The translations under genes were made by a program, and so were the position numbers. Of a stretch of DNA of 64,000 bases, positions 5,501-57,121 are shown piece after piece. Each line of letters begins with the position of its first letter. The first letter of the stretch is position 1. The notes below the pieces were generated by a model. It was not told the origin of the DNA and searched no databases. It saw nothing but the letters and a program-made list of their open reading frames with translations. The stretch lies in IMG/VR virus record IMGVR_UViG_3300009162_000001; one strand, 5' to 3'. Source of the DNA: a virus.

Positions 5501-8500
5501 CTTTTCTAGATCCGCAAACGACGTGACCACCTGCGGTACATGCACACCAGGTGTTGGCGTCGGTGCTGGCTTAGCGCCAGACAGTGATGCGTAGACCGGA
5601 GCTCCGGTCGGCGTCGGGTATATCTTCCACGAGTCGCCGTTGTCGTCGTTCATCTTAAGGTAGGCGTCGACCTCGTGTGGCTCAACCTTGACGAGCGCCA
5701 CACCGTTCTTAAACACAAACATGTGTTCGCCAAGCTGACCCTTTTCAACGGTAAGAAGATCACCGTTCTCAAGATTCTTGTTGGCGATCACCGAGTAGCT
5801 CTTCACATCGGGATCGGCCAGGGCCTTCATGATCAGTGAGGTGCCGGGATGCTCGTCAGACGACGGCGGCATCACGGTCGGCTTCTTGACGTCAGGATGC
5901 GCGATGACGTAGTCGAGACCCTTCTTCGTCTTCAGCCACTTCTTAAGCTTGTTCGTGTACGAGCTGTTCGTCGGCGCGCTGGGCGGCAACCCAGTGTCCA
6001 GCGCCGCTAGGATCTGCATGTTCGTCAGGTGTTCGTAACCGACACCCGCATCTGAGGTCTTGAACGACTGCAGTGCATCCCAGATCGCCTCAGGCTTGTT
6101 GTGCCACTTCGCACCGTTGGCATTGAAGTACGTCTTAAGAACACCGATCTGCGCGGGCGACATGCTGGTGATGTCAGCACCTGGGTTCGGCGCAGGCTTC
6201 GGTGGATCGACGTTGACGAGATGCCACTTTGACGTACTTGTGTGATCTTGCGCCGTGAACGCTAAGTCATTTGCCGGGATGTTTGTCTCAAGGGTCATCC
6301 AGTCACTGGGGTTGTTCGTTGATTGCTTCTGGATGCGAAACTTCTTCATGTCTGCGTTAGGTAGTGATGTACCACCCGCAATGATGCGGAAGTTACCCTC
6401 AGGTGTCGTCACCGTCGCAATGACTTGGTTCTTGACGAACGTAGCCATAGACTCAAATGTGAACTTTTGCTTCCACGCTTCCGAGGTAAACGTTGTCTCG
6501 TTGTCACCACCGTAGGCACCGGTTGACACAGCACCGTCAATCGCCGCATTGTGCTGTGAGATGTTCGCCGGCACACCAAAGTGCGGAACGGCTACGTCAC
6601 CCTTAAGCCAACTCTTAACACTCTCGTTTGAGTGATACTTGGTGACATCAGCGAGATCATCTTCCCACTCGGCGTCAGACGCGCCTTCACCCGGTAGACC
6701 CAGCTTGCTGACCACCGTCCACTTACCGGTGCTGTTCTGAATCTTACTGAGCTCGATCTGACCGGTGCTGATGTTGTACGTCATCGCCAGGCTACCGTCT
6801 GTCGTCACTCCGATCGTCGTACCGGGTGCGTTAAACAGTCCGGCATCCACCATGTCGTCAACGCTCAGCTCATCCTCAGGCTCCCACCATGTATCTGAAC
6901 CGACATTACCGTCAAGATCTTGATTGAACAACGAGCTAGGATTCCACGCAATGTCAGCACCACCAGCTTTGTCGATCCACCACTGGTTAAACGCATCATT
7001 ATCATGAAACTGAACAGATGACTTACCATCACCGGTCTCTTCGTACAATGCAAGCGGATAGTCAAACGATGTCTTACGAATCGTAACCGGGTTACCATTC
7101 TTATCATTTCCAGCGATAAGAATATTACCCGGCTTTGCGGTCTTAGCTGCGTCAAGAACATTCGTGCCAAGTTCAGCGTGCTTGGTGTCGACCGGATACG
7201 CCATCTTGACGGCAGATGTTCCCAACTTAGCCTGACGCTGTGCGGTCGTCTTCTTGTAAAGATCGCTAAAGTCCTTTTCCAGCGTATCACGACGCTGCAT
7301 GATCGCCTTAAGGAACGTCTCAGGATCGTTACCGTAGGCGCTTAACCATCCGTTCTTGGCGGCACCCTGCGCGTACGAACCGAACATATCCCGGATGTCA
7401 TCGTCAGAGAGCTCGGTCGCGTCAAAGATAACCTGCGCGATCGCATGATCTTCATCCGGATCGTGCATCTGGATGTTCTCGCCGTTGGCATATGCCTTCC
7501 ACATGTCCGGGTACGTGTGCTTGTTTGGACTGAGTGGGCTCCACGGCTTGTAGTCCGGATCAAGCTTGTCCTTGGCGTAGAACCTGAAGGCGTGACCCTT
7601 GTCGATGGACGAGATGTGACCGTTTGGTAGTCTGATGAACTGACCGGAGTGTGCGTCGTTGTTGCCCAGGAGCCAGTCGAGGACTTGCTCCTTCTGCATG
7701 TCACGCACATCTTCTTCAGACAAGTTCGTCGGCTTAAACGAACCGTTCGGGAACGCGTCCTGGGCGTCGAACATCGCCTGCACGGCGGCCGGCTTGCCAT
7801 CGACGTCCATCACCCACGTCTTGGGACCCTTAAGCCCGATGGCTGCCTGCAGCTTGTTCGCCGCGACGTCGAGCTCAAGCACAGGATCATCGTTAGGGTT
7901 CTTCTTACGACGCACCAACCAGCGCTGACCCTTGTCATCGATGTAGATCGGCGACGCGGAGACTCCCGTGGCCGCGTTCCCGATCTTCTTCATCTTCGCG
8001 GGATCAGGCTTGTGTGCGTTCATCACCGCCACGATGGAACCCGGCACACCAGGCGGCGATGAATACGACTTAATGACAACCGGCGGTGAAACCGGTGGTG
8101 GAGCTGTTGACTTCGGTGCGGATGCAGGCTGACGCCAGTCCCACTTCGCGTCCTTCGCCATCTTATACGTGTCGGCCTTGGTGTCATACGAGACCGAGTA
8201 CCACGCATCAGTCACAGTGCTCTTCTGCTGCAGCTGGTACTTCTTCATCCCCGCACTCCAGCGGAGTCGATGAGTGCCATCAGCACTCACGGCGACGACC
8301 GTACCATCCTGGTGTTGCTTGTGAATGGTCGCAGGAATGAACTTCTTAGTTGACGGCGCAGATGATGTGACCTTCGCTGGCTCAACGTTTTCAAGAGGCG
8401 TTGGCACCGTACTTGGAATGGTAGGCACCGCGTTGGGTACGCCCGGTGGTGAATCCAGCTTCATGTTCTCCGGCACCGGCGTGGTAATGGTCGTGTCGGA

Positions 8501-10432
8501 GTCGGGACCCTTGTTCTCAAAGCCAGAGATCTTATGCTTAAGCGGCTCAGACATCGGCGACGAGCTGATGCCATGCGTCAGCTTGGAGATCCAGCCCTGC
8601 TGCTTATCCGTCAGGTTGTCCCAGGTCTCCTGGGAATCGATCGCGCCGACGGCATCCTTCAGCTGCGTGAATGTTGGGCTGTTCATCTTAAAGAAGTCAG
8701 CAAGTGGACCCTTACTGATGAACCGCCCGTCCTTGCCGCGCGGATGCTGCTCAGGCTGCCACTTACGGTGAACGCCACTCGCCGTCAGGGCCATGTCCAT
8801 GGCGAACTTGTACGACTGCGACTTAGGTGGCTTCGGCGGATCAGCCGGGATGATGTCATTGGTATCGGTCGTCGAGTCACCGGTGTCGAAGATGTCGAAG
8901 ATCTTCGGAATGCTGTCGGCCAGCGCCGGGTGGAAGTCACCATCACGCAACATTGTGGCGATCTGCTGCCTCGTCAGCCACAACGCGTTCATAACCTCGG
9001 CGTGATCGACCTCAGGCTCAAACTGACGTGGCGCCTCAGCGGCGATGTTCGTGTACTTCCACGGTTCAGGCTGACCCTCAATAGGCTGAACGGTTACGTG
9101 CGTACCCAGGTGCTTAACGTCATCCAGGTACTTCTGCGAGACGTGCAGTTCCTCATACGTCTCGCGAGCCGCACCCTGGGCCGGAGTCTCATACTGATCC
9201 ATCGCACCGCCGGGAAGCTGCCACTTCCCGGTGTTGGAGACGGCCTTACCACGCTGGATGAAGAGGAAGCTGTCTTCACCGTCCTCGTTTGGCGCCTTGA
9301 TCATGACACCCGAGGCGCCGTACGTTCCCCAGATGCGCCACTGCTGGTTCTTAACGAGGTACTTGTCGCCCGACTTACCACGCAGTGCCGCAGGTAGGAT
9401 CACGAACTTGTTGGGATCCTTGGCGATCTCGGCGATCTGCTCAGGTGTGCGACCACCGTACTTGCGCTCAATGCGAGCCTGCTCAGCCTTCTTCATGGCT
9501 GCAAGCTGCTCAGGTGTCGGTGGCGCCTTCTTCTGCTTAGGTACCTTAAAACCACCAAGCAGCTTTGAGATCTCGACGTCACTCAAGTCATCGATGAACT
9601 CACCACTATGAGGATCCCGCGGATGATCTTTAGGATCCCAGTTAGGCTTACCCTTTGCCCACGGGTATCCCGCGGACATCATGACGAGCTCTTCCTCATC
9701 ATCCGCGGTGACGTCAGGGAACAACTCGTATGTCACAGAGCAGCGACAGTTGATCGTCTCGTCCAGTGGTCCACGAGGATCTCCTGGGTACTGCATCTGT
9801 GAACGACCAACCGTGAACGGCTCGGAGATCTTTTGTGTCTGACCGTCAGCCTCATCATGTGTTGGCCGTGTGTGCGAGTCGTTGGTCGCCAGCCAAGACT
9901 TCTTGCCGTCGGGATCCACCATCGCAGCCTGAGCATATGAGCCAGCTTCTAGCGCAGCGTGGATCTCGGTACGTGCGATCGTCAGTGCCTTGGAGTCTGA
10001 GACGTTACCGACGTGCTTGATGCGCGCGGCGATCTGCTTGACGTCCTCATCTAGCGCGTAACCCTTGATGAGCTGCGTGTGGATCGCGTCCCAGACGTCC
10101 TGGCTTAGATCTTGAAACCGGTTGGCGGCCAGCTGCAGGTGTGTCTCCACGAAGTCTTCATTTAGGAGGAACGCCTTATCCCCCAAACCAAGGTCCTGAC
10201 GCACCCTCTCAGCACCGTCGAGTACCTGCATGCCCAGATATCCCAGCAAGGGTCCGTCCACCTGCTGAGCCCACAGGGAGGGCAGCTCATTGAGGTCTGA
10301 CATCGATACCCGCGTGGTCTGCTTACCGACCAGCGCGCGCATCACGGCACGCCACGCCTTCTGGATCAACGCAGCTAGTGTGTCAGCGCGCTCATCCTTC
10401 TCGTCGCGCGACCACCCCCGTGTGTCCGCCAC
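2549..10432 (-). CDS. giant 2627-aa MuF (SPP1 gp7)-like head-morphogenesis fusion protein: MuF + Nudix + kinase-like motif + repeated beta-rich modules + C-terminal ADP-ribosyltransferase
   Basis: Single uninterrupted ORF directly after the portal gene. MuF motif: ARTEIH...THDEADGQ...INCRCS. Nudix box: GGAMDQYETPAQGAARETYEEL. Kinase-like motif: NNDAHSGQF...SIDKGHAF. At least 10 repeats of about 70-95 aa, PPAPPPPPPPPPPPKP tract. ART signature: YTGGIYHSIN, LLHRGVG, GFGSTSTG, ENEMLL (ExE). Confidence 0.9.
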   Translation of the reverse strand: MADTRGWSRDEKDERADTLAALIQKAWRAVMRALVGKQTTRVSMSDLNELPSLWAQQVDGPLLGYLGMQVLDGAERVRQDLGLGDKAFLLNEDFVETHLQLAANRFQDLSQDVWDAIHTQLIKGYALDEDVKQIAARIKHVGNVSDSKALTIARTEIHAALEAGSYAQAAMVDPDGKKSWLATNDSHTRPTHDEADGQTQKISEPFTVGRSQMQYPGDPRGPLDETINCRCSVTYELFPDVTADDEEELVMMSAGYPWAKGKPNWDPKDHPRDPHSGEFIDDLSDVEISKLLGGFKVPKQKKAPPTPEQLAAMKKAEQARIERKYGGRTPEQIAEIAKDPNKFVILPAALRGKSGDKYLVKNQQWRIWGTYGASGVMIKAPNEDGEDSFLFIQRGKAVSNTGKWQLPGGAMDQYETPAQGAARETYEELHVSQKYLDDVKHLGTHVTVQPIEGQPEPWKYTNIAAEAPRQFEPEVDHAEVMNALWLTRQQIATMLRDGDFHPALADSIPKIFDIFDTGDSTTDTNDIIPADPPKPPKSQSYKFAMDMALTASGVHRKWQPEQHPRGKDGRFISKGPLADFFKMNSPTFTQLKDAVGAIDSQETWDNLTDKQQGWISKLTHGISSSPMSEPLKHKISGFENKGPDSDTTITTPVPENMKLDSPPGVPNAVPTIPSTVPTPLENVEPAKVTSSAPSTKKFIPATIHKQHQDGTVVAVSADGTHRLRWSAGMKKYQLQQKSTVTDAWYSVSYDTKADTYKMAKDAKWDWRQPASAPKSTAPPPVSPPVVIKSYSSPPGVPGSIVAVMNAHKPDPAKMKKIGNAATGVSASPIYIDDKGQRWLVRRKKNPNDDPVLELDVAANKLQAAIGLKGPKTWVMDVDGKPAAVQAMFDAQDAFPNGSFKPTNLSEEDVRDMQKEQVLDWLLGNNDAHSGQFIRLPNGHISSIDKGHAFRFYAKDKLDPDYKPWSPLSPNKHTYPDMWKAYANGENIQMHDPDEDHAIAQVIFDATELSDDDIRDMFGSYAQGAAKNGWLSAYGNDPETFLKAIMQRRDTLEKDFSDLYKKTTAQRQAKLGTSAVKMAYPVDTKHAELGTNVLDAAKTAKPGNILIAGNDKNGNPVTIRKTSFDYPLALYEETGDGKSSVQFHDNDAFNQWWIDKAGGADIAWNPSSLFNQDLDGNVGSDTWWEPEDELSVDDMVDAGLFNAPGTTIGVTTDGSLAMTYNISTGQIELSKIQNSTGKWTVVSKLGLPGEGASDAEWEDDLADVTKYHSNESVKSWLKGDVAVPHFGVPANISQHNAAIDGAVSTGAYGGDNETTFTSEAWKQKFTFESMATFVKNQVIATVTTPEGNFRIIAGGTSLPNADMKKFRIQKQSTNNPSDWMTLETNIPANDLAFTAQDHTSTSKWHLVNVDPPKPAPNPGADITSMSPAQIGVLKTYFNANGAKWHNKPEAIWDALQSFKTSDAGVGYEHLTNMQILAALDTGLPPSAPTNSSYTNKLKKWLKTKKGLDYVIAHPDVKKPTVMPPSSDEHPGTSLIMKALADPDVKSYSVIANKNLENGDLLTVEKGQLGEHMFVFKNGVALVKVEPHEVDAYLKMNDDNGDSWKIYPTPTGAPVYASLSGAKPAPTPTPGVHVPQVVTSFADLEKLPWVPGDVVATREDGKWRVTYDDDSKFVLETNDGTADSPNWTSEIVAAEPQSSLLNHFPVDTWNMTDKWYAGTPGGSDPTLSPTVGSRNATADEVWNATPSFGSATYAKIIATGTYVKEGGTFTYKIKQDGDGEGFKKLQVFYHNDEGTDVPTSYEFTTEEQLTNFMDNNVLGKNTKWTLAPVSTEGEVKDVSIASPIDTLPDGTEVLLAEDIQPEDWQQILKDKSVVPGHKLHAVTTDLQHQLFSTDGWFFVSTWNPDKHKYELAGSGKDPYLTATNKVGFFKSWVHAEQSPNSPPPITDKFTGLSTTPNVFPLKDGTPVSTGYTIPMDGWESIGDVNPDAGYKLHAVSPSKELILVSNFGGYQLRKYNPATNKYELFAEGDHPKKLAQDHSDYWNYAIDLSPTKIAPAASSTPKSKLTLADGTTVDKGPEVKVWKDLAAKKNSGQPLAYSEDGKYRLSANYGFFYLHKWDDTNKKWIYVDGEQYKLASLAKVVKTKWYDATTPVAHPKPPKPAPVALKYPTTPPAPPPPPPPPPPPKPTGIFGTITLPDGTDVPKGPKVAAWGPLSKKSQYNATTVLAYSSNGQHRIVYHKPGSEFQLQTWSPANNTWTTTNTESYKVATLANSAPVYGWYKPEATVPTVKTSHSASVVTVPGGGTIDMGGGDISHLSDAQKKQVYQAFKSQPATYLKSSSQDIWAALITIADNNNLTKMQTLRVIDEVGAAKVSKPDDHLFEKKITDWLQTPAGYAILHNLPIPKPPPPKFMAGVEGNLPTLEESNKYSYNVLDTSSATSWFNKALAAFKKATGQEPSGSAKSGITNYTGGIYHSINAFLYGKVQGISSSNEQSMNNAQAAMIPSIEPVLLHRGVGFDAFKATSYASLAKMVGQTRWMGGFGSTSTGGHSAFGGHVKIEIEAPPGTPMYWAKPISLHKGENEMLLAAGLYYHILSVTPNGSGATVRVRIVPKPDDESQIIAAVDAGMMWR

Positions 10433-15504: not shown

Positions 15505-15595
15505 AAATGACAGATGAGCGCCACCCGCGGATAGGAGTACGCAGGGTGACGCTCATCGTTTCTCCAGCCGACCAATCCATGTACTCGCCGGAGAG

Positions 15596-15668
15596 AGCCA
15601 CGTGAAGGTATCGAACCCTCGACATTCCGCTTACAAGGCGGACACTCTACCAACTGAGTTAACGTGGC
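15596..15668 (-). tRNA. tRNA-Thr (TGT)
   Basis: Hand fold. Acceptor GCCACGT/ACGTGGC, D-loop AGTTGGTA, anticodon loop CT-TGT-AA, T-arm GAGGG-TTCGATA-CCTTC. Confidence 0.88.
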
Positions 15669-15773
15669 GTGGCACGATGGCGTTTCTCCAAGCGCCACCG
15701 TGCTTTGTGCAAAACAGCACCAACAGCATGTCCGTGGCTAGTGGACATGGAACCAAGACGTTGTCTTGACCCG

Positions 15774-15844
15774 CTGGGAGTGGAGGACTCGAACCTCCAC
15801 AGCGGGAACCAAAATCCCGCGTCCTGCCATTAGACGAACTCCCA
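15774..15844 (-). tRNA. tRNA-Gln (TTG)
   Basis: Acceptor TGGGAGT/ACTCCCA, anticodon loop TT-TTG-GT, T-arm GGAGG-TTCGAGT-CCTCC. Confidence 0.85.
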
Positions 15845-15849
15845 ATGCT

Positions 15850-15926
15850 GTAGGCGACCCCGTACTCAGACGGAACCTTTTAGGAGTTGGTTAGACTCCC
15901 TCTATCCGGTAACCAGCCGGACCTAC
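15850..15926 (-). ncRNA. non-canonical tRNA-sized structured spacer (possible pseudo-tRNA)
   Basis: 77 nt. Complementary ends GTAGGT./.GCCTAC. Internal 5-bp stem with 7-nt loop CTAACCA. No canonical T-loop. Confidence 0.3.
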
Positions 15927-15930
15927 CTCG

Positions 15931-16002
15931 GGTGACTGAAGAGGATCGAACTCTCGTATCTGGGACCACAACCCAGCGCTCTACCATTGAGCTACAATCA
16001 CC
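15931..16002 (-). tRNA. tRNA-His (GTG)
   Basis: Encoded G-1 opposite C73. Acceptor GTGATTG/CAGTCAC, anticodon loop TT-GTG-GT, T-arm GAGAG-TTCGATC-CTCTT. Confidence 0.88.
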
Positions 16003-16003
16003 G

Positions 16004-16074
16004 TACGCCGTGAAGGTATCGAACCTTCGTCCCCCGGGTAAAAGCCGGGTGCTAAGCCACTCAGCTAACGGCGC
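16004..16074 (-). tRNA. tRNA-Lys (TTT)
   Basis: Acceptor GCGCCGT/ACGGCGT, anticodon loop CT-TTT-AC, T-arm GAAGG-TTCGATA-CCTTC. 1 nt from tRNA-His. Confidence 0.88.
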
Positions 16075-16079
16075 TTAAG

Positions 16080-16164
16080 GAGGCGCAGGTCTGACTCTCG
16101 CTTGGATAGTAAGCTGTCATGATCAGCCTTCGAAGCCATGTTCACAAAACTTCGTTAACGCCTC
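16080..16164 (-). ncRNA. structured spacer with closing stem (non-tRNA)
   Basis: About 85 nt bounded by GAGGCG/CGCCTC. No cloverleaf found. Confidence 0.25.
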
Positions 16165-16167
16165 ACG

Positions 16168-16248
16168 CGGAAGGTGAGGGACTCGAACCCCCAACCGTTG
16201 CCGGCTCTGGTTTTCAAAACCAGTTCCCACGCCAATGGGAGACCTTCC
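16168..16248 (-). tRNA. tRNA-Ser (TGA)
   Basis: Acceptor GGAAGGT/ACCTTCC, anticodon loop TT-TGA-AA, long variable arm, T-arm GGGGG-TTCGAGT-CCCTC. Confidence 0.85.
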
Positions 16249-16250
16249 GT

Positions 16251-16324
16251 GTAGTGATATTTCGGTGGACGGTATCGCAACCCACACTGTCCGTTTATGC
16301 GACCGGGTAAATCCAGCTCACTAC
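16251..16324 (-). ncRNA. tRNA-sized structured spacer (degenerate tRNA?)
   Basis: 74 nt bounded by GTAGTGA/TCACTAC. T-loop-like GGTTGCGATACC, but no canonical arms. Confidence 0.3.
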
Positions 16325-16333
16325 GACTGGCCG

Positions 16334-16414
16334 TATGCTCGGAGGGACTTGAACCCTCACACCCGTAGGTACCAGATCCTAAGTCTGGCGCGTCTGCCGT
16401 TCCGCCACGAGCAC
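16334..16414 (-). tRNA. tRNA-Leu (TAG)
   Basis: Acceptor GTGCTCG/CGAGCAT, anticodon loop CT-TAG-GA, long variable arm, T-arm GAGGG-TTCAAGT-CCCTC. Confidence 0.85.
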
Positions 16415-16419
16415 GTGTG

Positions 16420-16523
16420 TAAGAGCGCAGGAGTCGACTAAGGTGTAGAAAGGCGATGACACCCGTCATGACCGACCCTTGGCGTAATGCGAGATGGCTA
16501 TAGTTTCCGCTTTAACGCTCTTA
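16420..16523 (-). ncRNA. structured spacer with 8-bp closing stem (non-tRNA)
   Basis: 104 nt bounded by TAAGAGCG/CGCTCTTA, with internal hairpins. Fills the whole gap between tRNA-Leu and tRNA-Ile. Confidence 0.3.
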
Positions 16524-16525
16524 CG

Positions 16526-16600
16526 TGTCCTTCACAGGATTTGAACCTGCAACCTCGGCGTTATCAGCGCCGTGCTCCTACCAGTTCGAGCTCGAAGGAC
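16526..16600 (-). tRNA. tRNA-Ile (GAT)
   Basis: Acceptor GTCCTTC/GAAGGAC, D-arm GCTC-GAACTGGTAG-GAGC, anticodon loop CT-GAT-AA, T-arm GCAGG-TTCAAAT-CCTGT. Confidence 0.88.
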
Positions 16601-16650
16601 TTGGAGCCGGGGTGGGCAGGCATGGCGTCCTGACCAACCCCACCCCGACG

Positions 16651-16723
16651 TATCCCCAGCAGGATTTGAACCTGCGACCTCTTGATTCGTAGTCAAGCGC
16701 GCTATCCACTGCGCCATGAGGAT
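16651..16723 (-). tRNA. tRNA-Arg (ACG)
   Basis: Acceptor ATCCTCA/TGGGGAT, anticodon loop CT-ACG-AA, T-arm GCAGG-TTCAAAT-CCTGC. Confidence 0.88.
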
Positions 16724-16726
16724 ATG

Positions 16727-16824
16727 CTGTGAAGGCAACAACCCGGATGTTCGGCGCTACCGAGTGGTACGGGCTTAAGCCTCCTTGGGAGCTACCCAAG
16801 GATCAGACCTGTGTACCTTCACAG
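16727..16824 (-). ncRNA. structured spacer with 9-bp closing stem (non-tRNA)
   Basis: 98 nt bounded by CTGTGAAGG/CCTTCACAG. Internal 7-bp hairpin CCTTGGG/CCCAAGG. Confidence 0.3.
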
Positions 16825-16861
16825 TGTTAACGTGGAGGATCTGCAGATCCATCACGTCACG

Positions 16862-16932
16862 TAGAGTTATGGGGAATCGAACCCCAACCCGGTGGCTGAG
16901 AACCACCTGTGCTGCCATTGCACCATAACTCC
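16862..16932 (-). tRNA. tRNA-Glu (CTC)
   Basis: Acceptor GGAGTTA/TAACTCT, anticodon loop TT-CTC-AG, T-arm TGGGG-TTCGATT-CCCCA. Confidence 0.85.
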
Positions 16933-16935
16933 ATT

Positions 16936-17091
16936 ATAACGAGTGACAACCAGCCGTGGCGTTAACGGATTGGGGTCCGCAATACCATCTCAGCCCGGTG
17001 TTTCTGCATCGTAAGGCCCCAACCCGACGACCGATACTCCCGTATACCCAAGGCCCCGCGTGGAGCCCGGGTACAGCCACCAACTCGTTAT
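16936..17091 (-). ncRNA. 156-nt structured spacer with 9-bp closing stem
   Basis: Bounded by ATAACGAGT/ACTCGTTAT, GC-rich internal helices, no ORF. Confidence 0.3.
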
Positions 17092-17165
17092 TGGAAGGTC
17101 ATCCTCACGCCACCACGCGTCCTACCCTAAAGTGGGCGGAATCACGTTACCTCCCGAGGTGGCTC

Positions 17166-17243
17166 TGGCGTCCCATGCCGGACTCGAACCGGCGATCTTC
17201 GGATTGACGATCCGACGTCCACTCCATGCTGGACCGATAGGAC
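17166..17243 (-). tRNA. tRNA-Asp (GTC), CCA encoded
   Basis: Acceptor GTCCTAT/ATGGGAC, anticodon loop TC-GTC-AA, T-arm GCCGG-TTCGAGT-CCGGC, then G-CCA. Confidence 0.88.
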
Positions 17244-17247
17244 AACG

Positions 17248-17320
17248 TACGCTGTGAAGGACTTGAACCCTCAACACCCTGGGTGTAGGCCAGGTGCTCT
17301 TCCAGTTGAGCTAACAGCGT
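17248..17320 (-). tRNA. tRNA-Val (TAC)
   Basis: Acceptor ACGCTGT/ACAGCGT, D-arm GCTC-AACTGGAA-GAGC, anticodon loop CC-TAC-AC, T-arm GAGGG-TTCAAGT-CCTTC. Confidence 0.88.
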
Positions 17321-17362
17321 ATGAAACGAATGTAGTTGTCAAGTAACCGTTTCGTAAGGTTT

Positions 17363-17374
17363 ACTTTATCACAC
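17363..17374 (-). promoter_or_regulatory. conserved extended -10 promoter (GTGTGATAAAGT) upstream of the tRNA array
   Basis: Plus strand reads actttatcacac. Followed on the minus strand by the GACAACTACA box (17331-17340) and tRNA-Val. Confidence 0.5.
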
Positions 17375-17494
17375 TTTGTGTGATCGTGCAACTACTTATC
17401 TCAAGATTTTTTCTTCTAACGTAAAGGGCGCAGCATGGGCTACGCCCCTCACTCTCAACCTGTACTGTGCTGTGTATATTGTATCACGTTTATG

Positions 17495-17579
17495 TGCTCC
17501 GAGAGGGAGTCGAACCCTCACGCAAGTTTCCTCGCAGCAGATTTTAAGTCTGCGGTGTCTCCCATTCCACCACCGGAGC
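17495..17579 (-). tRNA. tRNA-Leu (TAA)
   Basis: Acceptor GCTCCGG/TCGGAGC, anticodon loop CT-TAA-AA, long variable arm, T-arm GAGGG-TTCGACT-CCCTC. Confidence 0.85.
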
Positions 17580-19037: not shown

Positions 19038-19067
19038 ACGTCACTCCCATCACTTCGGTCTTTTTCG

Positions 19068-19141
19068 TTCCGGGGGTGGGATTTGAACCCACGTCCTCCT
19101 GATTATGAGTCAGGTGAGCTACCGAGCTGCTCCACCCCGGG
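19068..19141 (-). tRNA. tRNA-Met (CAT) with C1:A72 mismatch
   Basis: 5' CCCGGGG versus 3' CCCCGGA (position 1:72 is C:A), anticodon loop CT-CAT-AA, T-arm GTGGG-TTCAAAT-CCCAC. Confidence 0.85.
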
Positions 19142-20183: not shown

Positions 20184-20594
20184 TTAAACGGCAGCCTTCT
20201 TCGGTGGATGACAGACGGGACACGCGTAGCCGCTCGCAAACGGTGTTGGCGAGTTAAGTACGATCGGTCCATTGTGAACGTGACCACATGTAGGACACTG
20301 CACGGCTGTGTAGACACCATGACTGTACTGCGGTTCAGGTTCACCACGTTCTTCCATCAGCTGCCGCACATAGACGATGGCATCCAGCAGCTCGTCATAC
20401 AGGTCCTGAAGCGCATCACGACCGTTGTTGACCTGCAGCAGCGCGCCATACTTTCGTAGACCGAACGCCTTGCGCTCTTGTATGTCCTGGATGACCAGGT
20501 CGTGCATGCTGGGGCCGTCGTTGGGGACCGGAAGTGGCTGTGTGCCGTCGTATTCGTCACTCATGAGCTCAACCTTACCATATGTCACAGACAT
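20184..20594 (-). CDS. MazG-like nucleotide pyrophosphohydrolase (putative)
   Basis: ERKAFGLRKYG...ALQDLYDELLDAIVYVRQL resembles the all-alpha MazG/dNTP-PPase core common in actinophages. C-terminal CxxC..CxxC. Confidence 0.5.
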   Translation of the reverse strand: MSVTYGKVELMSDEYDGTQPLPVPNDGPSMHDLVIQDIQERKAFGLRKYGALLQVNNGRDALQDLYDELLDAIVYVRQLMEERGEPEPQYSHGVYTAVQCPTCGHVHNGPIVLNSPTPFASGYACPVCHPPKKAAV

Positions 20595-22911: not shown

Positions 22912-23334
22912 TTAGTCACGGCATGACTCGATGAAGCCGTCCATGTCAACAAGATTCATCTCGTAACCCTCGGGAACGACGCGGTAGATCTCTTGGAGGA
23001 ATCGCATCACGGGACGGTATGGCGTGCGCAGCCAGACGATGTCGACGCCGTTGTGCATCTCGATAATCAAGATATGATCCTCACGCCAGATCTTGATGTC
23101 ACCGTCGCCAACGCGATGAGTTGCAACTACACCTGACGCGAGAAGATCACGTGCGAACGACCACTCGACGAACGATTCACCGTCGTTGTCTTCATTGACG
23201 CCAATGAAGACGAGGGAGACCGCGAACGGATCGCGTGTGTGGTACATCAGGCGAACGGGTACGTTGATGCCGTGACCACCGTCGTCAGAACGGGCTGTCA
23301 CGTACACGAGACTTTCATATACCTTGTGGTCCAT
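22912..23334 (-). CDS. SsgA/SsgB-like protein (SALP family, actinomycete sporulation-septation)
   Basis: VPVRLMYHTRDPFAVSLVF...VEWSFARDLLASGV...GDGDIKIW...VVPEGYE aligns by eye with the conserved SsgB core (LRYDTADPYAV..VEWVFARDLLAEGL..GDVRVWP..VPPG.E). Confidence 0.75.
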   Translation of the reverse strand: MDHKVYESLVYVTARSDDGGHGINVPVRLMYHTRDPFAVSLVFIGVNEDNDGESFVEWSFARDLLASGVVATHRVGDGDIKIWREDHILIIEMHNGVDIVWLRTPYRPVMRFLQEIYRVVPEGYEMNLVDMDGFIESCRD

Positions 23335-23359
23335 CGATCACTCCTATCACTAGACTACG

Positions 23360-23430
23360 TAGAGTCACGGGGAGTCGAACCCCGGCTACGAGGGTGAAAA
23401 CCTCGAGGTCTGCCGTTAACCTATGACTCC
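23360..23430 (-). tRNA. tRNA-Glu (TTC)
   Basis: Acceptor GGAGTCA/TGACTCT, anticodon loop TT-TTC-AC, T-arm CGGGG-TTCGACT-CCCCG. Confidence 0.85.
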
Positions 23431-34784: not shown

Positions 34785-35240
34785 CTATGCCTGTGTCTCA
34801 CTCTCGCGCTCTCGTACCTTCTCGATGTGACCAATGATCGCCGCCTCGAGGTCCTGCAGCGTTGTGGTGCCACCGTCGACCTCAACCACGTCGTCATTGA
34901 CCGTCTCGAGACGCATGATCTCGGAGTTCTCAGCATCGAGAGGACAATCTTCGTCACCACAGTAGATGATGATCGGTTCATCAGATCCGTACTGTGATAT
35001 GAAAAGTGGCCACGTCCGCGCGGTCATCACCAGCCGCTGCTCCTCGGGCGCCAGCTCACTAATGACGTCCTTGACCAGCTGTGAAAAGTCGACGTCCATC
35101 GCCTGTGCCATTCGCTTGATGACGCGCAACATGCCGGCGGCGACTGACAGATGGGTGTTGGCGAACGTCTCGTTCACGTTCTCATGAACCGTAACGTCCG
35201 CGTTCGACGTCTGGACCGTCATACTGATGTGCATGATCAC
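34785..35240 (-). CDS. hypothetical protein
   Basis: 151-aa ORF, 4-nt overlap with thyX. Confidence 0.55.
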   Translation of the reverse strand: MIMHISMTVQTSNADVTVHENVNETFANTHLSVAAGMLRVIKRMAQAMDVDFSQLVKDVISELAPEEQRLVMTARTWPLFISQYGSDEPIIIYCGDEDCPLDAENSEIMRLETVNDDVVEVDGGTTTLQDLEAAIIGHIEKVRERESETQA

Positions 35241-35944
35241 TCCATGTCTTGGAACGTGTTCGGTGCCAGCTCCTTAAGCTGACGCAAGATCTCAGCGGCG
35301 AGTGCGCGGATCTCCCCGTCGGCGAACTGGGTGTTCCGCTTCGCGATGACGTCGCGCCAGGCACGCATGTTGCCCGTCACCAGGATCTTGGTCTCCGTCA
35401 TGTTAGGCAACACGGCGCGTGCCGTCTGGCGCGCCACCTTACGCGCCATGCCCATCGACTCCAGCGCCCGGACGATCGTGGCGTAATGGCTCTGCGCCTC
35501 CGTCATGAGCTGAACCAGGTTTTCCTGCAGCTCCGTCCGCGACTGACCGCCGTGAAGCGCCGGCGGCACGATCAGCTTGGCCTTGGACTCGTCGACGTAC
35601 CGCTGTGAGACTTGCGAGAACGACAGGTGACGGTGCCTGACCAACTCGTGCGTCAGGCTCCGCGAGATCCCGTCGAGGTAGAACGTCGCCGAGGCGTGTT
35701 CCAACACCGAGAAGTGCTGCTGGTTGATGATGTTGTCCAGGTAACGAGCGTTCGTCGCGGTAGCTGGATTGGGTCGCTCCCATGACTGGTAGCACAGGCG
35801 GCCACCAAACTCAGCCAGATGATCGGCGTCGGGACCGTCGTCACCCAGGTCCTCATACGTCTGTTCCGGGTAGTCCACCCAGCCGGCGTCGCGCATGTTT
35901 CCCCAGCCCGTGATGACGGTGTGGGCGATGAGCAGCACTCTCAC
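35237..35944 (-). CDS. thyX: FAD-dependent thymidylate synthase ThyX
   Basis: ThyX signature RHRHLSFSQVSQRY. Confidence 0.88.
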   Translation of the reverse strand: MRVLLIAHTVITGWGNMRDAGWVDYPEQTYEDLGDDGPDADHLAEFGGRLCYQSWERPNPATATNARYLDNIINQQHFSVLEHASATFYLDGISRSLTHELVRHRHLSFSQVSQRYVDESKAKLIVPPALHGGQSRTELQENLVQLMTEAQSHYATIVRALESMGMARKVARQTARAVLPNMTETKILVTGNMRAWRDVIAKRNTQFADGEIRALAAEILRQLKELAPNTFQDME

Positions 35945-37506: not shown

Positions 37507-37799
37507 GGTACGATCCCCTCATCCCAGTGGCAGTAGACGTCCTCGTCATCGGGATCGCCCTCATAGGTGCGAACCCAGGCCAGGTACTCCTCCGACTCAC
37601 CCTGCGTCTCGTAGGTGTACGAGCCGTCACGGCTCTCGCGTACGACATCCGGGCAACCCGTCAGGGCGCGAACCATCTGATCGATGATCCACTGCTTGTG
37701 GTGAGCACCGTCGACGTTGGACGCCTGGTCTAGCGCCTTCTTGATGCGATCTTCCAGCGTGGACATGTCCGTCTCGGTAAAGGTGAAGTACGACATCAC
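37503..37799 (-). CDS. hypothetical protein
   Basis: 98-aa ORF. Confidence 0.5.
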   Translation of the reverse strand: MMSYFTFTETDMSTLEDRIKKALDQASNVDGAHHKQWIIDQMVRALTGCPDVVRESRDGSYTYETQGESEEYLAWVRTYEGDPDDEDVYCHWDEGIVP

Positions 37800-38545
37800 G
37801 TTCCCTTCTTACTCGACGAGATCAGCTTGGCGTGGATGATGAGCCGGTGGTAGTTGTCCCACTTGGGATCGCAGGTCGTCAGTGTCAGCAGCTTATCGCC
37901 CGACTTGTAGGCGCCCGGCGGAACCGGAGCGACCTGCTGCCAGGCATCGGGACTGACGATCTGTGGCCCGTCTGTGACCCGGTAAGCGTAGACGTAGTTC
38001 TTGGTCTCAACCTGGATGACGTCACCGACGCGCATCTGATCCAGGTCCCAGAACAGCCCGTGCTCACGATGACCGGCCACCGCGAAGTTGCCCTTCTTGC
38101 CCGGCATCGCGGTTCCGGGGTAGTGACCGGGCGCCGAGGCGATGTCGTCGGCGTTGACGCCCTCGACGACGTACCACGTCAGGCCGAGCCGCTCGATAGA
38201 CATCCGCGCGATCAGGTCGCCCCAGACCACCTCATCCGGTTGCTTGTCGGGCGGCGTAGCACCCTCTGCGCCTCCGGCGATCGCCTCGCCTAGTCCACTA
38301 CCGGGGTCGTTCCAGCGGGCGTCGAGTTCCTGCTGGATGTCCTGGACGCGGTCCTGACCGCCCTCGTACCTTGTGCCCACGTAGATCCACAGTCCCACAC
38401 CGGCGGTAATGCTCAGCACCGCCGCCGTTATGAGCAGGTGGCTGTTGACCCAGCGTCCACCAGATCTCAAACTCGACCCAAGACGTGATAACACGAATCC
38501 TCCCCTGAAGTATGTGATTGATAAACGCGTGAATGGGACCCGCAA
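37796..38545 (-). CDS. sortase (membrane-anchored cysteine transpeptidase)
   Basis: N-terminal TM anchor. Catalytic triad context FAVAGHR, LLTLTTCDP (TLxTC) and RLIIHA. Confidence 0.8.
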   Translation of the reverse strand: MRVPFTRLSITYFRGGFVLSRLGSSLRSGGRWVNSHLLITAAVLSITAGVGLWIYVGTRYEGGQDRVQDIQQELDARWNDPGSGLGEAIAGGAEGATPPDKQPDEVVWGDLIARMSIERLGLTWYVVEGVNADDIASAPGHYPGTAMPGKKGNFAVAGHREHGLFWDLDQMRVGDVIQVETKNYVYAYRVTDGPQIVSPDAWQQVAPVPPGAYKSGDKLLTLTTCDPKWDNYHRLIIHAKLISSSKKGT

Positions 38546-54329: not shown

Positions 54330-54361
54330 TATGTAACGGACCCGATCAATCGTCAGGAGTG

Positions 54362-55285
54362 ATGACAGTGATATTTGGCCTTGAGGGTCCTGACCTCATG
54401 GGTAAGACGTCGTTGGCCGACGAGCTGGAGAAGACGTTCCTCGCCGGTGGGGACGCCGTCACCCGCATGAAGCGTGGCCCTCTCAAGCAGGATCCGCTGA
54501 CGGAGTACCTGGTGCCGCTGCAGGACTACGACACCTCGACGATCTGGATCCTCGATCGCTGGCACCTCGGTGAGCTGGTCTACGGTCCACTCATGCGTGG
54601 CGCCTCGAGGTTGTCGATGGCCCAGGCCTACTACATCGAGCTGGTCTTACGTTCGCTAAACGCGCAGATGGTTCACGTGACCTCGACCGAGGAGGTCTTG
54701 GCTCGGCGGTACGCCTCGCGGGGCGACGACTTCGTCAGCCTCGAGCAGCTGATCACCGTTCGCAAGCACTACAACGACCTCGTCTTCCATCATATGCCGT
54801 GGTACGTTAGCGCCTACACCGATGCCTTCCGATCGGACCAGCTGGCCTACCAGCTGTACCTCACCAGAGAGGCCGGTCTACCTCCTACGGAGTACCTTGG
54901 CGGTCCGCGCCCCAAGGTGCTTCTGCTAGGCGACAGGCAGGCCAACGGATCGGCTACGCTGAAGCGACCGGCTATCATCTGGCCATTCGCGCCGTGGAAC
55001 GGAACCTCAGGCCACTGGCTCTTCCAGTCCATGCTGTCGGCTGAGGTCCAGGTCTACGACATCGGTATCATCAACGCCTGTGACCGTCCGCCGATCGAGC
55101 TGCAGATGACCTGGCTCAAGCTGGGCCAGCCGCCGACGATCGCACTCGGCCTGAACGCCAAGAAGTCCGCGGAAGCCGTCGGGATCCCGCTGGCCAACCA
55201 CATTCCCCATCCGCAGTTCGCGCGCCGGTTCCATCACGCTGACCTGGTGCCGTACGGTCTCGAGATCAAGAAGGTTATGGCATGA
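54362..55285 (+). CDS. fusion: P-loop dNMP-kinase-like domain + UDG-superfamily-like domain
   Basis: N-terminal VIFGLEGPDLMGKTS ... DRWHLGELVYG. C-terminal VLLLGDRQAN ... WPFAPWNGTSGHWL ... IPHPQFARR, resembling UDG motifs A/B. Confidence 0.6.
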   Translation: MTVIFGLEGPDLMGKTSLADELEKTFLAGGDAVTRMKRGPLKQDPLTEYLVPLQDYDTSTIWILDRWHLGELVYGPLMRGASRLSMAQAYYIELVLRSLNAQMVHVTSTEEVLARRYASRGDDFVSLEQLITVRKHYNDLVFHHMPWYVSAYTDAFRSDQLAYQLYLTREAGLPPTEYLGGPRPKVLLLGDRQANGSATLKRPAIIWPFAPWNGTSGHWLFQSMLSAEVQVYDIGIINACDRPPIELQMTWLKLGQPPTIALGLNAKKSAEAVGIPLANHIPHPQFARRFHHADLVPYGLEIKKVMA

Positions 55286-55398
55286 GTGGACAGCAGCAGC
55301 TCGTGGCACTGATGTGCATCCTTCTCACGGCACTCGCCATCACGTTTCTCATTATGGGACCGTCCATCATTCAAGCCAATAAGCAGCGAAAGGATTAA
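55282..55398 (+). CDS. 38-aa single-TM micro-protein
   Basis: Not in the track. ATGA-coupled. MSGQQQLVALMCILLTALAITFLIMGPSIIQANKQRKD. Confidence 0.4.
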   Translation: MSGQQQLVALMCILLTALAITFLIMGPSIIQANKQRKD

Positions 55399-56255
55399 TG
55401 ATGGAGTTCACAGGCTACACCGGTCACGAGGTCTACGCCGCCGCGGTGGCAGCCGTCATGGAACTTGGTGCCTTACGTAAGCCACGCGGCATGCTGACCC
55501 GTGACCTCGGCTTCGCCAGCCTGACGGTCCCAGCACCGATCCAGATGCTGCCGCTAGGTACGCGTCCCAACCTGTCGACCGCGATCGCGGCCGTCGAGGC
55601 CGTGCAGCTGATCGGCGGGTTCTCCAATCCCGAGCTGATCGCACGCGTCGCGCCGGCGCTGATGCCGTACGCCGAGCCGGAGGGTCGCTTCCACGGCGCT
55701 TATGGCCGACGCATCGGGACGCAGGTCGGCAGCGTCATCACCAAGCTGCGCACCGATCCTGACTCGCGCCAAGCCGTGGTGACACTGTGGGATCCGATGC
55801 TGGACAACCAGCCGCACAAGAAGGACTACCCGTGCACCGTCGCTTTGACGTTCGAGGTCCACGGTGGCAAGCTGGCAATGACCACCGTGATGCGCTCCAA
55901 CGACGTCTGGCGTGGGCTGCCCTACGACATGTTCCAGTTCACGCAACTACAGGAGTCTGTGGCGCGTGTGCTTGAGATGCCGTCCGGTCGCTACCGCCAC
56001 GTGGCGCTGAGCCTTCACGCGTATGAGGAGGACTGGCCCGAGTTGGAGAAGGTCGACGCACGTAACGCTAAGACTGAGGAGTACTACCCGACCGGGATCG
56101 GCAACGAGGTGATCTACCCCGGCGACTGGCACCGCACGCAGCATCGCGCCTACGAGACCTCGATCGTCACCATCATGGCGGAGGTCACCAGGTCCGAGCA
56201 GTGGTATCGCACGCGTCTGACACCGAGGGCGGTGGTACCCGATGATGGACCCTGA
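55398..56255 (+). CDS. ThyA-fold pyrimidine C5 methylase/hydroxymethylase (Asp at the Asn177-equivalent position)
   Basis: YPCTVALTFEVHGGKLAMTTVMRSNDVWRGLPYDMFQF aligns with E. coli ThyA [38 protein letters not shown]. The nucleophile Cys is conserved and FN becomes YD. Confidence 0.75.
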   Translation: MMEFTGYTGHEVYAAAVAAVMELGALRKPRGMLTRDLGFASLTVPAPIQMLPLGTRPNLSTAIAAVEAVQLIGGFSNPELIARVAPALMPYAEPEGRFHGAYGRRIGTQVGSVITKLRTDPDSRQAVVTLWDPMLDNQPHKKDYPCTVALTFEVHGGKLAMTTVMRSNDVWRGLPYDMFQFTQLQESVARVLEMPSGRYRHVALSLHAYEEDWPELEKVDARNAKTEEYYPTGIGNEVIYPGDWHRTQHRAYETSIVTIMAEVTRSEQWYRTRLTPRAVVPDDGP

Positions 56256-56523
56256 CCGTTCAACCGTTAAGGGGATGCCGCTTGAGCTGGCGCGTGAGCG
56301 TGTTCGTCAGCGTCTGAGTCAGCGTGCGGTCGCTGTCCGCGCGGGACTTCACGAGTCCATGATCTGCCAGTGGGAGGGCGGTCAACGTGCGCCGTCGCTA
56401 CGCAACCTCGAGCGCTGGTGCGCTGCACTTGACCTTGAGCTGACAACAAGACGAAAGAGATCTGATGACGAATCGTACATCGTGGGACGAGACGTGGTTG
56501 GCGCTCGCTCACGGCATAGCTAA
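56242..56523 (+). CDS. XRE-family HTH protein
   Basis: RLSQRAVAVRAGLHESMICQWEGGQRAPSLRNLERW. Confidence 0.65.
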   Translation: MMDPDRSTVKGMPLELARERVRQRLSQRAVAVRAGLHESMICQWEGGQRAPSLRNLERWCAALDLELTTRRKRSDDESYIVGRDVVGARSRHS

Positions 56524-57121
56524 GCGATCACTCTGCAGTCGTGACCAGGTCGGAGCGGTCATCGTCTCCGCGGACAACACACCGCTGATGGCGTCGTACA
56601 ACGGACCGCCCGCTGGCTTTCTCCATGATGAGAAGCCGTGCACCGAGTGGTGTCCTCGCGCCCGTGGCGACAATAAGACGTGGACACACGACGGCACGTC
56701 AGGACCAAGGCATGAGATCCAGTATGCCAATAATGAAATGTTCTGGCGATATCCCAACACGTCAGAATGGCACATACTAGATGATGCCGCACGCAAGATG
56801 TTAGGCTATGTCGAGACGCCGGTCTTGTCGCCGAACTACGAGGACTGTCCCGCGCTTCACGCCGAGGCTAACGCGCTGTCACGGTCCAATCATCTGCACC
56901 GCGCCGGCGGCACGATCTACGTCACGTCGGACGTATGCTTCAACTGTGCCAAGCTGATCGCCAACTCCGGCATCAAGCGCGTCGTCGTCGATCGGCGTCA
57001 GCCACGCGAGTACCGCAACTCCGCGAGGTCATACGAGTTCCTGACGATCTCATGCGGGTTGACCGTCAGCCTGGTCACCGAACACGAACTTCCCGCCGAC
57101 TACTGGGAGACCGCACAGTAA
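56465..57121 (+). CDS. dCMP deaminase (CDA zinc-binding fold) with insertion
   Basis: HAEANAL and CFNCAKLIANSGIKRVV motifs. Confidence 0.75.
   Translation: MTNRTSWDETWLALAHGIAKRSLCSRDQVGAVIVSADNTPLMASYNGPPAGFLHDEKPCTEWCPRARGDNKTWTHDGTSGPRHEIQYANNEMFWRYPNTSEWHILDDAARKMLGYVETPVLSPNYEDCPALHAEANALSRSNHLHRAGGTIYVTSDVCFNCAKLIANSGIKRVVVDRRQPREYRNSARSYEFLTISCGLTVSLVTEHELPADYWETAQ

Follow-up and report, generated by a model that had tools for sequence, protein, structure and literature searches.

What product would be expected of a ThyA-fold enzyme that is encoded close to a phage DNA polymerase, and next to a nucleotide kinase fused to a domain resembling uracil-DNA glycosylases (UDGs)? This question is raised by a 64,000-nucleotide stretch of viral DNA (IMG/VR record IMGVR_UViG_3300009162_000001, referred to below as the window), which derives from a 104 kb metagenomic phage contig that reaches past the window's end (ENA ERZ27257673 k141_5414491). 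An earlier inspection made without database searches, which we call the sequence-only reading, had picked out the region as a candidate DNA base-modification module. Our analysis suggests that the block at 54359-58890 is probably the precursor part of a replication module, and would make 5-hydroxymethyl-dCTP, the triphosphate precursor of 5-hydroxymethylcytosine (hmC), ahead of replication. The block occupies 54.3-58.9 kb of the + strand, and its open reading frames (ORFs) and the two domains of the fusion follow one another in this order:

54359-55285, + strand: kinase/UDG-fold fusion, 308 aa
54359-54868, + strand: P-loop deoxynucleoside monophosphate (dNMP) kinase domain of the fusion, YorR/Tmk-like by profile, Foldseek and PHROG matches
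54884-55285, + strand: UDG-fold domain of the fusion, about 135 aa, from an AlphaFold2 model, Foldseek and weak profile matches
55282-55398, + strand: small ORF between the fusion and the hydroxymethylase, 38 aa
55398-56255, + strand: ThyA-fold pyrimidine hydroxymethylase, predicted deoxycytidine monophosphate (dCMP) 5-hydroxymethylase, 285 aa (PF00303, E 2.5e-18)
56242-56523, + strand: Xre-type helix-turn-helix (HTH) ORF, 93 aa (PF01381, E 9.8e-9)
56465-57121, + strand: dCMP deaminase, 218 aa (PF00383, E 1.2e-14; PHROG 174, E 1.6e-34)
57121-58890, + strand: family A DNA polymerase, PolA (PF00476, E 2.2e-68)

Residue signature of the ThyA-fold enzyme

The sequence-only reading described the product of 55398-56255 as a ThyA-fold protein that keeps the nucleophilic Cys in a YPC motif and has Asp at the site of the uracil-selecting Asn177 of Escherichia coli ThyA, and all three points were borne out. 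The fold is recognised by Pfam at the E value given above, and the Cys aligns with catalytic Cys146 in all members of the family. In HMMER alignments the Asp of LPYDMFQF falls on the Asn of VPFNIASY in solved ThyA and also on the corresponding Asp of the CMP hydroxymethylase MilA, and three MAFFT alignments that included E. coli ThyA and T4 gp42 again placed it at position 177. The numbering of the E. coli ThyA reference sequence agrees with the residue list of PMC13326640. Scanning IMG/VR for patterns from the alignment of the fusion protein gave 184 loci, of which 80 were analysed. The Asp is invariant both in the syntenic homologues (80/80) and in the closest database homologues (120/120).

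Agreement with gp42, the dCMP hydroxymethylase of phage T4, extends well beyond this site. At positions 126, 143, 146, 147, 165, 166, 167, 168, 169, 173, 177, 207 and 209 the window enzyme has R, D, C, T, M, R, S, N, D, G, D, H and Y, respectively, which is identical to gp42, and this signature is invariant or nearly so among the 120 closest homologues and the 80 IMG/VR homologues that adjoin a fusion. Several of these positions have published meanings. N177D denotes cytosine selection, an acidic residue at position 143 (L143D/E) correlates with a non-methyl product, and flavin-dependent 5-hydroxy-dCMP synthases are recognised by D169N (PMC13326640). Ser167 and Arg126 are found in users of deoxyribonucleotides, the corresponding A176 and K133 of MilA belonging to users of ribonucleotides; the roles of gp42 Asp179, which is equivalent to position 177, and of its nucleophile Cys148 are taken from the same source (PMC5175136).

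In the family studied here, the acidic residue at the Leu143-equivalent position is Asp in all members, and Ser167 and Arg126 are invariant, the Ala/Lys pair of the MilA type not being present. D169 is retained, as in T4 gp42, in all 200 family members examined, with no instance of D169N. A control dUMP hydroxymethylase, from the ViI-like Salmonella phage Se-J, has D143 but N177. Read against the published meanings of these positions, the residue signature of the window enzyme fits a predicted dCMP 5-hydroxymethylase, and not ThyA, a CMP hydroxymethylase or a 5-hydroxy-dCMP synthase. The hydroxymethylase itself would be a further member of an already known enzyme type.

Two other identities were considered and rejected. 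Although the best solved relative is the CMP hydroxymethylase MilA (E 4e-21; true ThyA reaches about 1e-11), an enzyme of the MilA/BcmA kind would be expected to have Ala and Lys in place of Ser167 and Arg126. A true thymidylate synthase is contradicted by the replacement of Asn177 by Asp in 200 of 200 relatives and by failure at the NCBIfam ThyA equivalog cut-offs (73.9 bits against 174.6, and 55 against 327), which T4 gp42 likewise falls far below. It is also contradicted by the presence of a conventional ThyX at 35237-35944 (- strand), noted in the sequence-only reading and recovered here with PF02511 (E 1.8e-54). Since ThyX supplies dTMP, that task does not require the ThyA-fold enzyme.

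A nucleotide kinase joined to a UDG-fold domain

The gene upstream of the hydroxymethylase had been read as a fusion of a P-loop kinase and a UDG-like domain, with which the AlphaFold model, Foldseek and the profile searches agree. Modelled whole from 36 homologues, the fusion gave a predicted local distance difference test (pLDDT) score of 94 and a predicted template-modelling (pTM) score of 0.92. Its N-terminal half carries a P-loop (GxDxxGK[ST]) and a DRWH motif, and its E72 and Y75 are invariant. By profile, the closest solved relative of this domain is YorR of Bacillus subtilis prophage SPbeta (E 1.1e-19), followed by thymidylate kinases (about 1e-4); YorR and Tmk are also its top Foldseek matches, PHROG 761 ('thymidylate kinase') is matched at 7.4e-8, and PF02223 is found in 13/36 members of the fusion family. 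We attempted to read base specificity from the invariant Glu72, and set this aside because the kinase of Gordonia phage GodonK has Ser at that position, so that no rule can be drawn. Published work shows that cognate dNMP kinases are required for efficient incorporation of modified dCMP, and also places a Tmk-like kinase in the RL38J1 cluster.

The C-terminal half is the more unusual part of the protein. When its last 137 residues were modelled alone by AlphaFold2 the pLDDT was 92, and the top 35 Foldseek matches were all family-4 UDGs or UdgX (best E 3.5e-5, query template-modelling scores 0.59-0.67). By profile, searches of the PDB gave weak UdgX matches (E about 0.04) that pair GD with GE(QPG), PF with PF and N with N, and PF03167 was found in 3 of the 36 family members. 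The motifs of the domain, nearly invariant across the 80 loci, are G191-[D/E]192, PF210xP212, S217-G218, N239 and H284-P-Q-x-x-R-R290. Published definitions of UdgX and family 4 comprise a water-activating acid, a stacking Phe, a base-reading Asn and a motif B of the form HPS(S/A)(L/V)(L/V)R (PMC10359453). The corresponding pocket residues, namely the acid [D/E]192, Phe210, Asn239 and the whole of motif B, are kept in 79-80 of the 80 loci. Judged from the models and these motifs, the domain is a predicted member of the UDG superfamily, nearest to family 4 and non-canonical.

The sequence-only reading had also raised a likeness to the hydroxymethyl-pyrimidine hypermodification pathways of other phages; a link to the thymidine-hypermodification machinery of 5-HMUDK and aGPT-Pplase did not survive. 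The aGPT-Pplase and AADT proteins are predicted to be helix-hairpin-helix glycosylase-like, the domain here models as a UDG fold, and no Pfam match to aGPT-Pplase was obtained in the fusion family. We think it possible, at somewhat less than an even chance, that the target of the domain is uracil, or a base resembling it, in DNA, given that all of the pocket residues appear to be under selection and that phage PolA-UDG fusions offer a precedent.

The association between the fusion and the hydroxymethylase is strict. In the analysed loci the fusion lies directly upstream of the ThyA-like gene with the gp42 signature in every case (80/80), and the two are followed, in this order, by the dCMP deaminase (79/80), PolA (77/80) and an SNF2 helicase (69/80), after which related loci have PD-(D/E)XK, AAA_24 and DUF669 genes. 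A HMMER scan of 1.84 billion representative sequences with the UDG-like domain returned 2243 clusters at E<=1e-3 and 226 (at 50% identity) at E<=1e-30; nearly all of the best 150 matches are proteins of about 300-360 aa in which the domain is C-terminal and fused to a kinase. One metagenomic contig (L094:2-1536) has a split form, in which separate but adjacent kinase and UDG-like ORFs lie upstream of the hydroxymethylase, through either a fission of the fusion gene or a sequencing frameshift.

The same gene order, fusion included, is seen in the metagenome-assembled actinophage DSL-LC01, and the cultured phages GodonK and Kurnik, which infect Gordonia and Micrococcus, respectively, have kinase, hydroxymethylase, deaminase and PolA genes in order. 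The GodonK, Kurnik and DSL-LC01 homologues all bear the D143/D177 signature (L090:5932-6816, L002:4656-5405 and L001:8929-9789). Enzymes with D143/D177 are also encoded by the cultured Gordonia phages Phendrix, Forza and Sixama. In GenBank the genes of these three phages are labelled thymidylate synthase and thymidylate kinase, and the JGI names are alike; in view of the hydroxymethylase signature the public 'thymidylate synthase' labels are probably wrong. Our literature searches found nothing that links the module genes of DSL-LC01, GodonK or Kurnik to DNA modification, and nothing on hmC in actinophages or on a Tmk-UDG fusion; the kinase/UDG-like fusion appears to be new to the literature searched.

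A predicted hmC pathway and its alternatives

In the pathway that we propose, the ThyA-fold enzyme would use its nucleophilic Cys and methylene-tetrahydrofolate to put a CH2 group on C5 of dCMP, leading to 5-hydroxymethyl-dCMP (5hm-dCMP). The Asp at the Asn177 position would pick cytosine, and the Asp at the Leu143 position would admit water to quench the exocyclic methylene, giving a hydroxymethyl and not a methyl group; it is the identity of residues with T4 gp42 that points to this step. The kinase domain of the fusion, in a role like that of T4 gp1, would then convert 5hm-dCMP to the diphosphate, as the strict adjacency of the two genes and the published need for cognate kinases suggest. 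Host NDP kinase would finish the triphosphate, and the adjacent phage PolA is the enzyme that we infer would incorporate the modified nucleotide.

The deaminase and ThyX would produce dUMP and then dTMP, the roles that cd and td have in T4. The assignment of 56465-57121 as a dCMP deaminase was upheld by its Pfam match and by HAE and PCxxC-type zinc motifs, and the protein carries an internal insertion. The least certain step is that of the UDG-fold domain, which might flip and excise uracil, or a base like uracil such as 5-hydroxymethyluracil (hmU) arising from deamination of hmC, in phage DNA.

The T4 scheme also includes gp56, a dCTPase/dUTPase, and to deplete the canonical dNTP the sequence-only reading had nominated a MazG-like gene at 20184-20594 (- strand, 136 aa). 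This assignment found no support, as Pfam (at E up to 1), NCBIfam and the PDB show no MazG or NTP-pyrophosphatase match for the ORF, which solely matches PHROGs of unknown function. Past the window's end the source contig has four genes that bear on the pathway:

L087:11679-15878 on the source contig (window-equivalent about 65.2-69.4 kb): dUTPase_2-type pyrophosphatase, orphan, glycosyltransferase and C5 methylase

The first of these, about 9 kb downstream, encodes an all-alpha NTP pyrophosphatase of the dUTPase_2 family (PF08761, E 1.7e-7; PHROG dUTPase, E 3.8e-25; sequence searches of the PDB gave nothing useful). It is a candidate for lowering dCTP and dUTP and a better one for the role of T4 gp56 than the supposed MazG ORF.

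A number of points weigh against the proposed pathway. The whole of it is built on homology and residue signatures, and a dCTPase role for the dUTPase_2-type protein is a guess. In the hydroxymethylase, position 127, the second phosphate-binding Arg of DSRR, is Arg in gp42 and ThyA and Gln in 115 of 120 members of the family. Pfam gives no match for the kinase domain of the window protein itself, and the kinases of GodonK and Kurnik are without the UDG-like domain. Where that domain is present, its motif A reads G[DE]x[RQ] and not GE[A/G/Q]PG, the acid being kept and the Pro-Gly missing, and it is approximately 55 residues shorter than family 4 (about 135 against 190-200 aa). Family-4 UDGs carry a 4Fe-4S cluster with four Cys ligands; the alignment of the UDG-like domain has no conserved Cys, which indicates that there is no such cluster. 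Because of these departures in motif A, Fe-S cluster and length, glycosylase activity of the domain is not assured. Finally, a C5 cytosine DNA methylase is encoded on the same contig, and its PC motif is intact. This enzyme would have no substrate if cytosine were fully replaced, which argues against full replacement and for at least some cytosines keeping a free C5.

Alternative readings were weighed against the same evidence. One, which we regard as unlikely, extends the pathway: the UDG-fold domain would be a base flipper on 5-hydroxymethyl-pyrimidines, and the orphan and the glycosyltransferase past the window's end would decorate hmC, yielding a new hypermodified cytosine. The domain might offer the 5-CH2OH group to its kinase partner to be phosphorylated, on a logic like that of 5-HMUDK, or it might police hmU or U in hmC DNA. 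The orphan, of 442 aa, shares 50-58% identity across more than 600 homologues, and searches of Pfam, PHROG and NCBIfam and a profile search of the PDB with it were empty; hhalign pairs it, at 43% probability, with the segment of T4 beta-glucosyltransferase that binds UDP, which we treat as a lead only. The glycosyltransferase is an RGP/STELLO-like GT-A enzyme (PF03214, E 9e-8), unrelated to the glycosyltransferase of DSL-LC01.

It seems improbable that hmU is the end product, with the deaminase turning 5hm-dCMP into 5hm-dUMP, the Tmk-like kinase phosphorylating it and the UDG-like domain telling U from hmU. Such a route would account for the deaminase gene adjoining the hydroxymethylase in 79/80 loci, and for a Tmk/YorR-like kinase, 5-substituted dUMP being the class of substrate on which Tmk-like kinases naturally act. 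It would also suit a uracil-type UDG pocket with conserved Asn and His, and UDG domains are fused to replication proteins in the modified-T phages SPO1, SP-10, SP-15 and YerA41. However, known hmU phages work directly with a dUMP hydroxymethylase that has Asn177, with which the Se-J control agrees, and synthesis of dTMP by ThyX would compete. Moreover, T4 has the same arrangement of deaminase and thymidylate synthase and yet makes hmC, and genes for 5-HMUDK or aGPT-Pplase were not detected.

Two further readings, both of them very unlikely, accept the use of dCMP and differ in the product. Asp177 would suit any ThyA homologue that uses dCMP, including a dCMP methyltransferase giving pre-replicative 5-methylcytosine as in Xanthomonas phage XP12; against this, position 143 is Asp with no bulky hydrophobic residue, positions 147, 165 and 168 also equal those of the hydroxymethylase gp42, and the best solved relatives are hydroxymethylases. 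A flavin-dependent 5-hydroxy-dCMP synthase of the RB69 gp48 type, feeding glycosylated 5-hydroxycytosine, would share N177D and L143D, which are common to that group. It would also be in keeping with the glycosyltransferase-like genes downstream on the contig and with the UDP-galactopyranose mutase and glycosyltransferase of DSL-LC01, which recall the RL38J1 cluster. The proposed diagnostic D169N, however, is absent. The least probable reading, that these are a housekeeping thymidylate synthase, thymidylate kinase and repair UDG in a phage with unmodified DNA, agrees with the GenBank and JGI names, but Asn177 is replaced in every member, L143, H147, Q165 and C168 are all changed, scores are 2 to 6 times under the ThyA equivalog cut-offs, and the ThyX already encoded is complete.

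Known counterparts and genome setting

The predicted hmC pathway most resembles that of T4 (gp42, gp1, cd, td and gp56), with which it shares the gp42 signature, a paired kinase, a deaminase, a separate thymidylate synthase and an all-alpha NTP pyrophosphatase near the module on the contig. The T4-type logic suggested by the sequence-only reading is well supported in silico for the hydroxymethylase, paired kinase, deaminase and separate ThyX, and unsupported for the MazG gene. Unlike in T4, the kinase is YorR/Tmk-like, not gp1-like, and is fused to a UDG fold, thymidylate synthase is of the ThyX kind, the genes stand together beside PolA and are not scattered, a C5 DNA methylase is encoded, and the host is probably actinobacterial. 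There is also no recognisable homologue of the T4 alpha- or beta-glucosyltransferase, the hhalign match of the orphan being the sole hint of one.

Individual components can be set beside other systems. MilA and BcmA act in the biosynthesis of mildiomycin and bacimethrin, and MilA too has Asp at the 177 and 143 positions, but it differs from the window enzyme in having Ala176 and Lys133 against Ser167 and Arg126, and in belonging to an antibiotic cluster and not a phage replication module. The UDG-like domain resembles family-4 UDG and UdgX in its fold, the acid after the motif-A Gly, the PF, the base-reading Asn and a motif B of the form HPxxxxR; it differs in being without the UdgX R-loop, and in always being joined to, or directly following, a nucleotide kinase. 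Phage PolA-UDG fusions (SPO1, SP-10 and SP-15/YerA41, with inactive versions in N4-like phages) similarly place a UDG-superfamily domain on a replication or nucleotide protein in phages whose pyrimidines are modified or predicted to be so, whereas the partner here is a dNMP kinase and the predicted modified base is C and not T. The closest solved relative of the kinase is SPbeta YorR (PDB 2axp, 3kb2; template-modelling score 0.78 on the target), which is a stand-alone protein of 173 aa and has Asn where the fusion family has the invariant Glu in DRxxxx[E/N]LVY.

No close DNA relative came up when the module was searched by megablast in 50,697 phage records, which gave no match. With the HTH ORF excepted, the ORFs of the block appear to be real genes, since their G+C content at third codon positions (GC3) is about 0.8. 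The 38-aa ORF was also called on the source contig (L004 9882-9998), close relatives have ORFs of 39 and 35 aa at its position, and GodonK has a 58-aa gene there. The HTH ORF overlaps the hydroxymethylase gene on one side and the deaminase gene on the other. Its GC3 is 0.60, against about 0.8 in its neighbours, and the gene calls for the source contig do not include it; a relative (L093) whose hydroxymethylase is 74% identical has a called HTH gene, of 72 aa, in this position.

An actinomycete host is indicated for this phage by its terminase- and portal-like genes together with 16 tRNAs, an SsgA-like protein, a sortase and a downstream WhiB. The host-like actinomycete genes encode the SsgA-like sporulation/cell-division protein (22912-23334, - strand) and the sortase (37796-38545, - strand), and the WhiB gene lies downstream on the source contig. 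All 16 tRNA genes are on the - strand (15595-17579, 19067-19141, 23359-23430 and 26555-26723), 12 of them in a tight array at 15.6-17.6 kb. A protein with a TROVE domain (Ro60-like; 23860-25476, - strand) adjoins the tRNA-Glu gene at 23359-23430; Rfam at the gathering threshold finds no Y-RNA-like gene, and an RNA ligase is encoded at 28968-29675. Elsewhere in the window, a 2627-aa protein (2549-10432, - strand) combines Mu-F-like head, NUDIX and C-terminal ADP-ribosyltransferase exoenzyme domains, and is probably a polyprotein effector that is ejected or associated with the virion.

If the proposed pathway is correct, pre-replicative hydroxymethylation of cytosine would reach a large clade of actinobacterial phages from soil and freshwater, the carriers of the module numbering at least 184 IMG/VR contigs in addition to cultured GodonK and Kurnik, which have it without the UDG-like domain. 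Modified bases in their DNA would have consequences for restriction mapping, cloning and sequencing of these phages and for host-defence studies. Proteins in which the kinase is fused to a UDG-like domain form a widespread family, and are a clear target in the search for a new activity on DNA or nucleotides that may be tied to modified bases.

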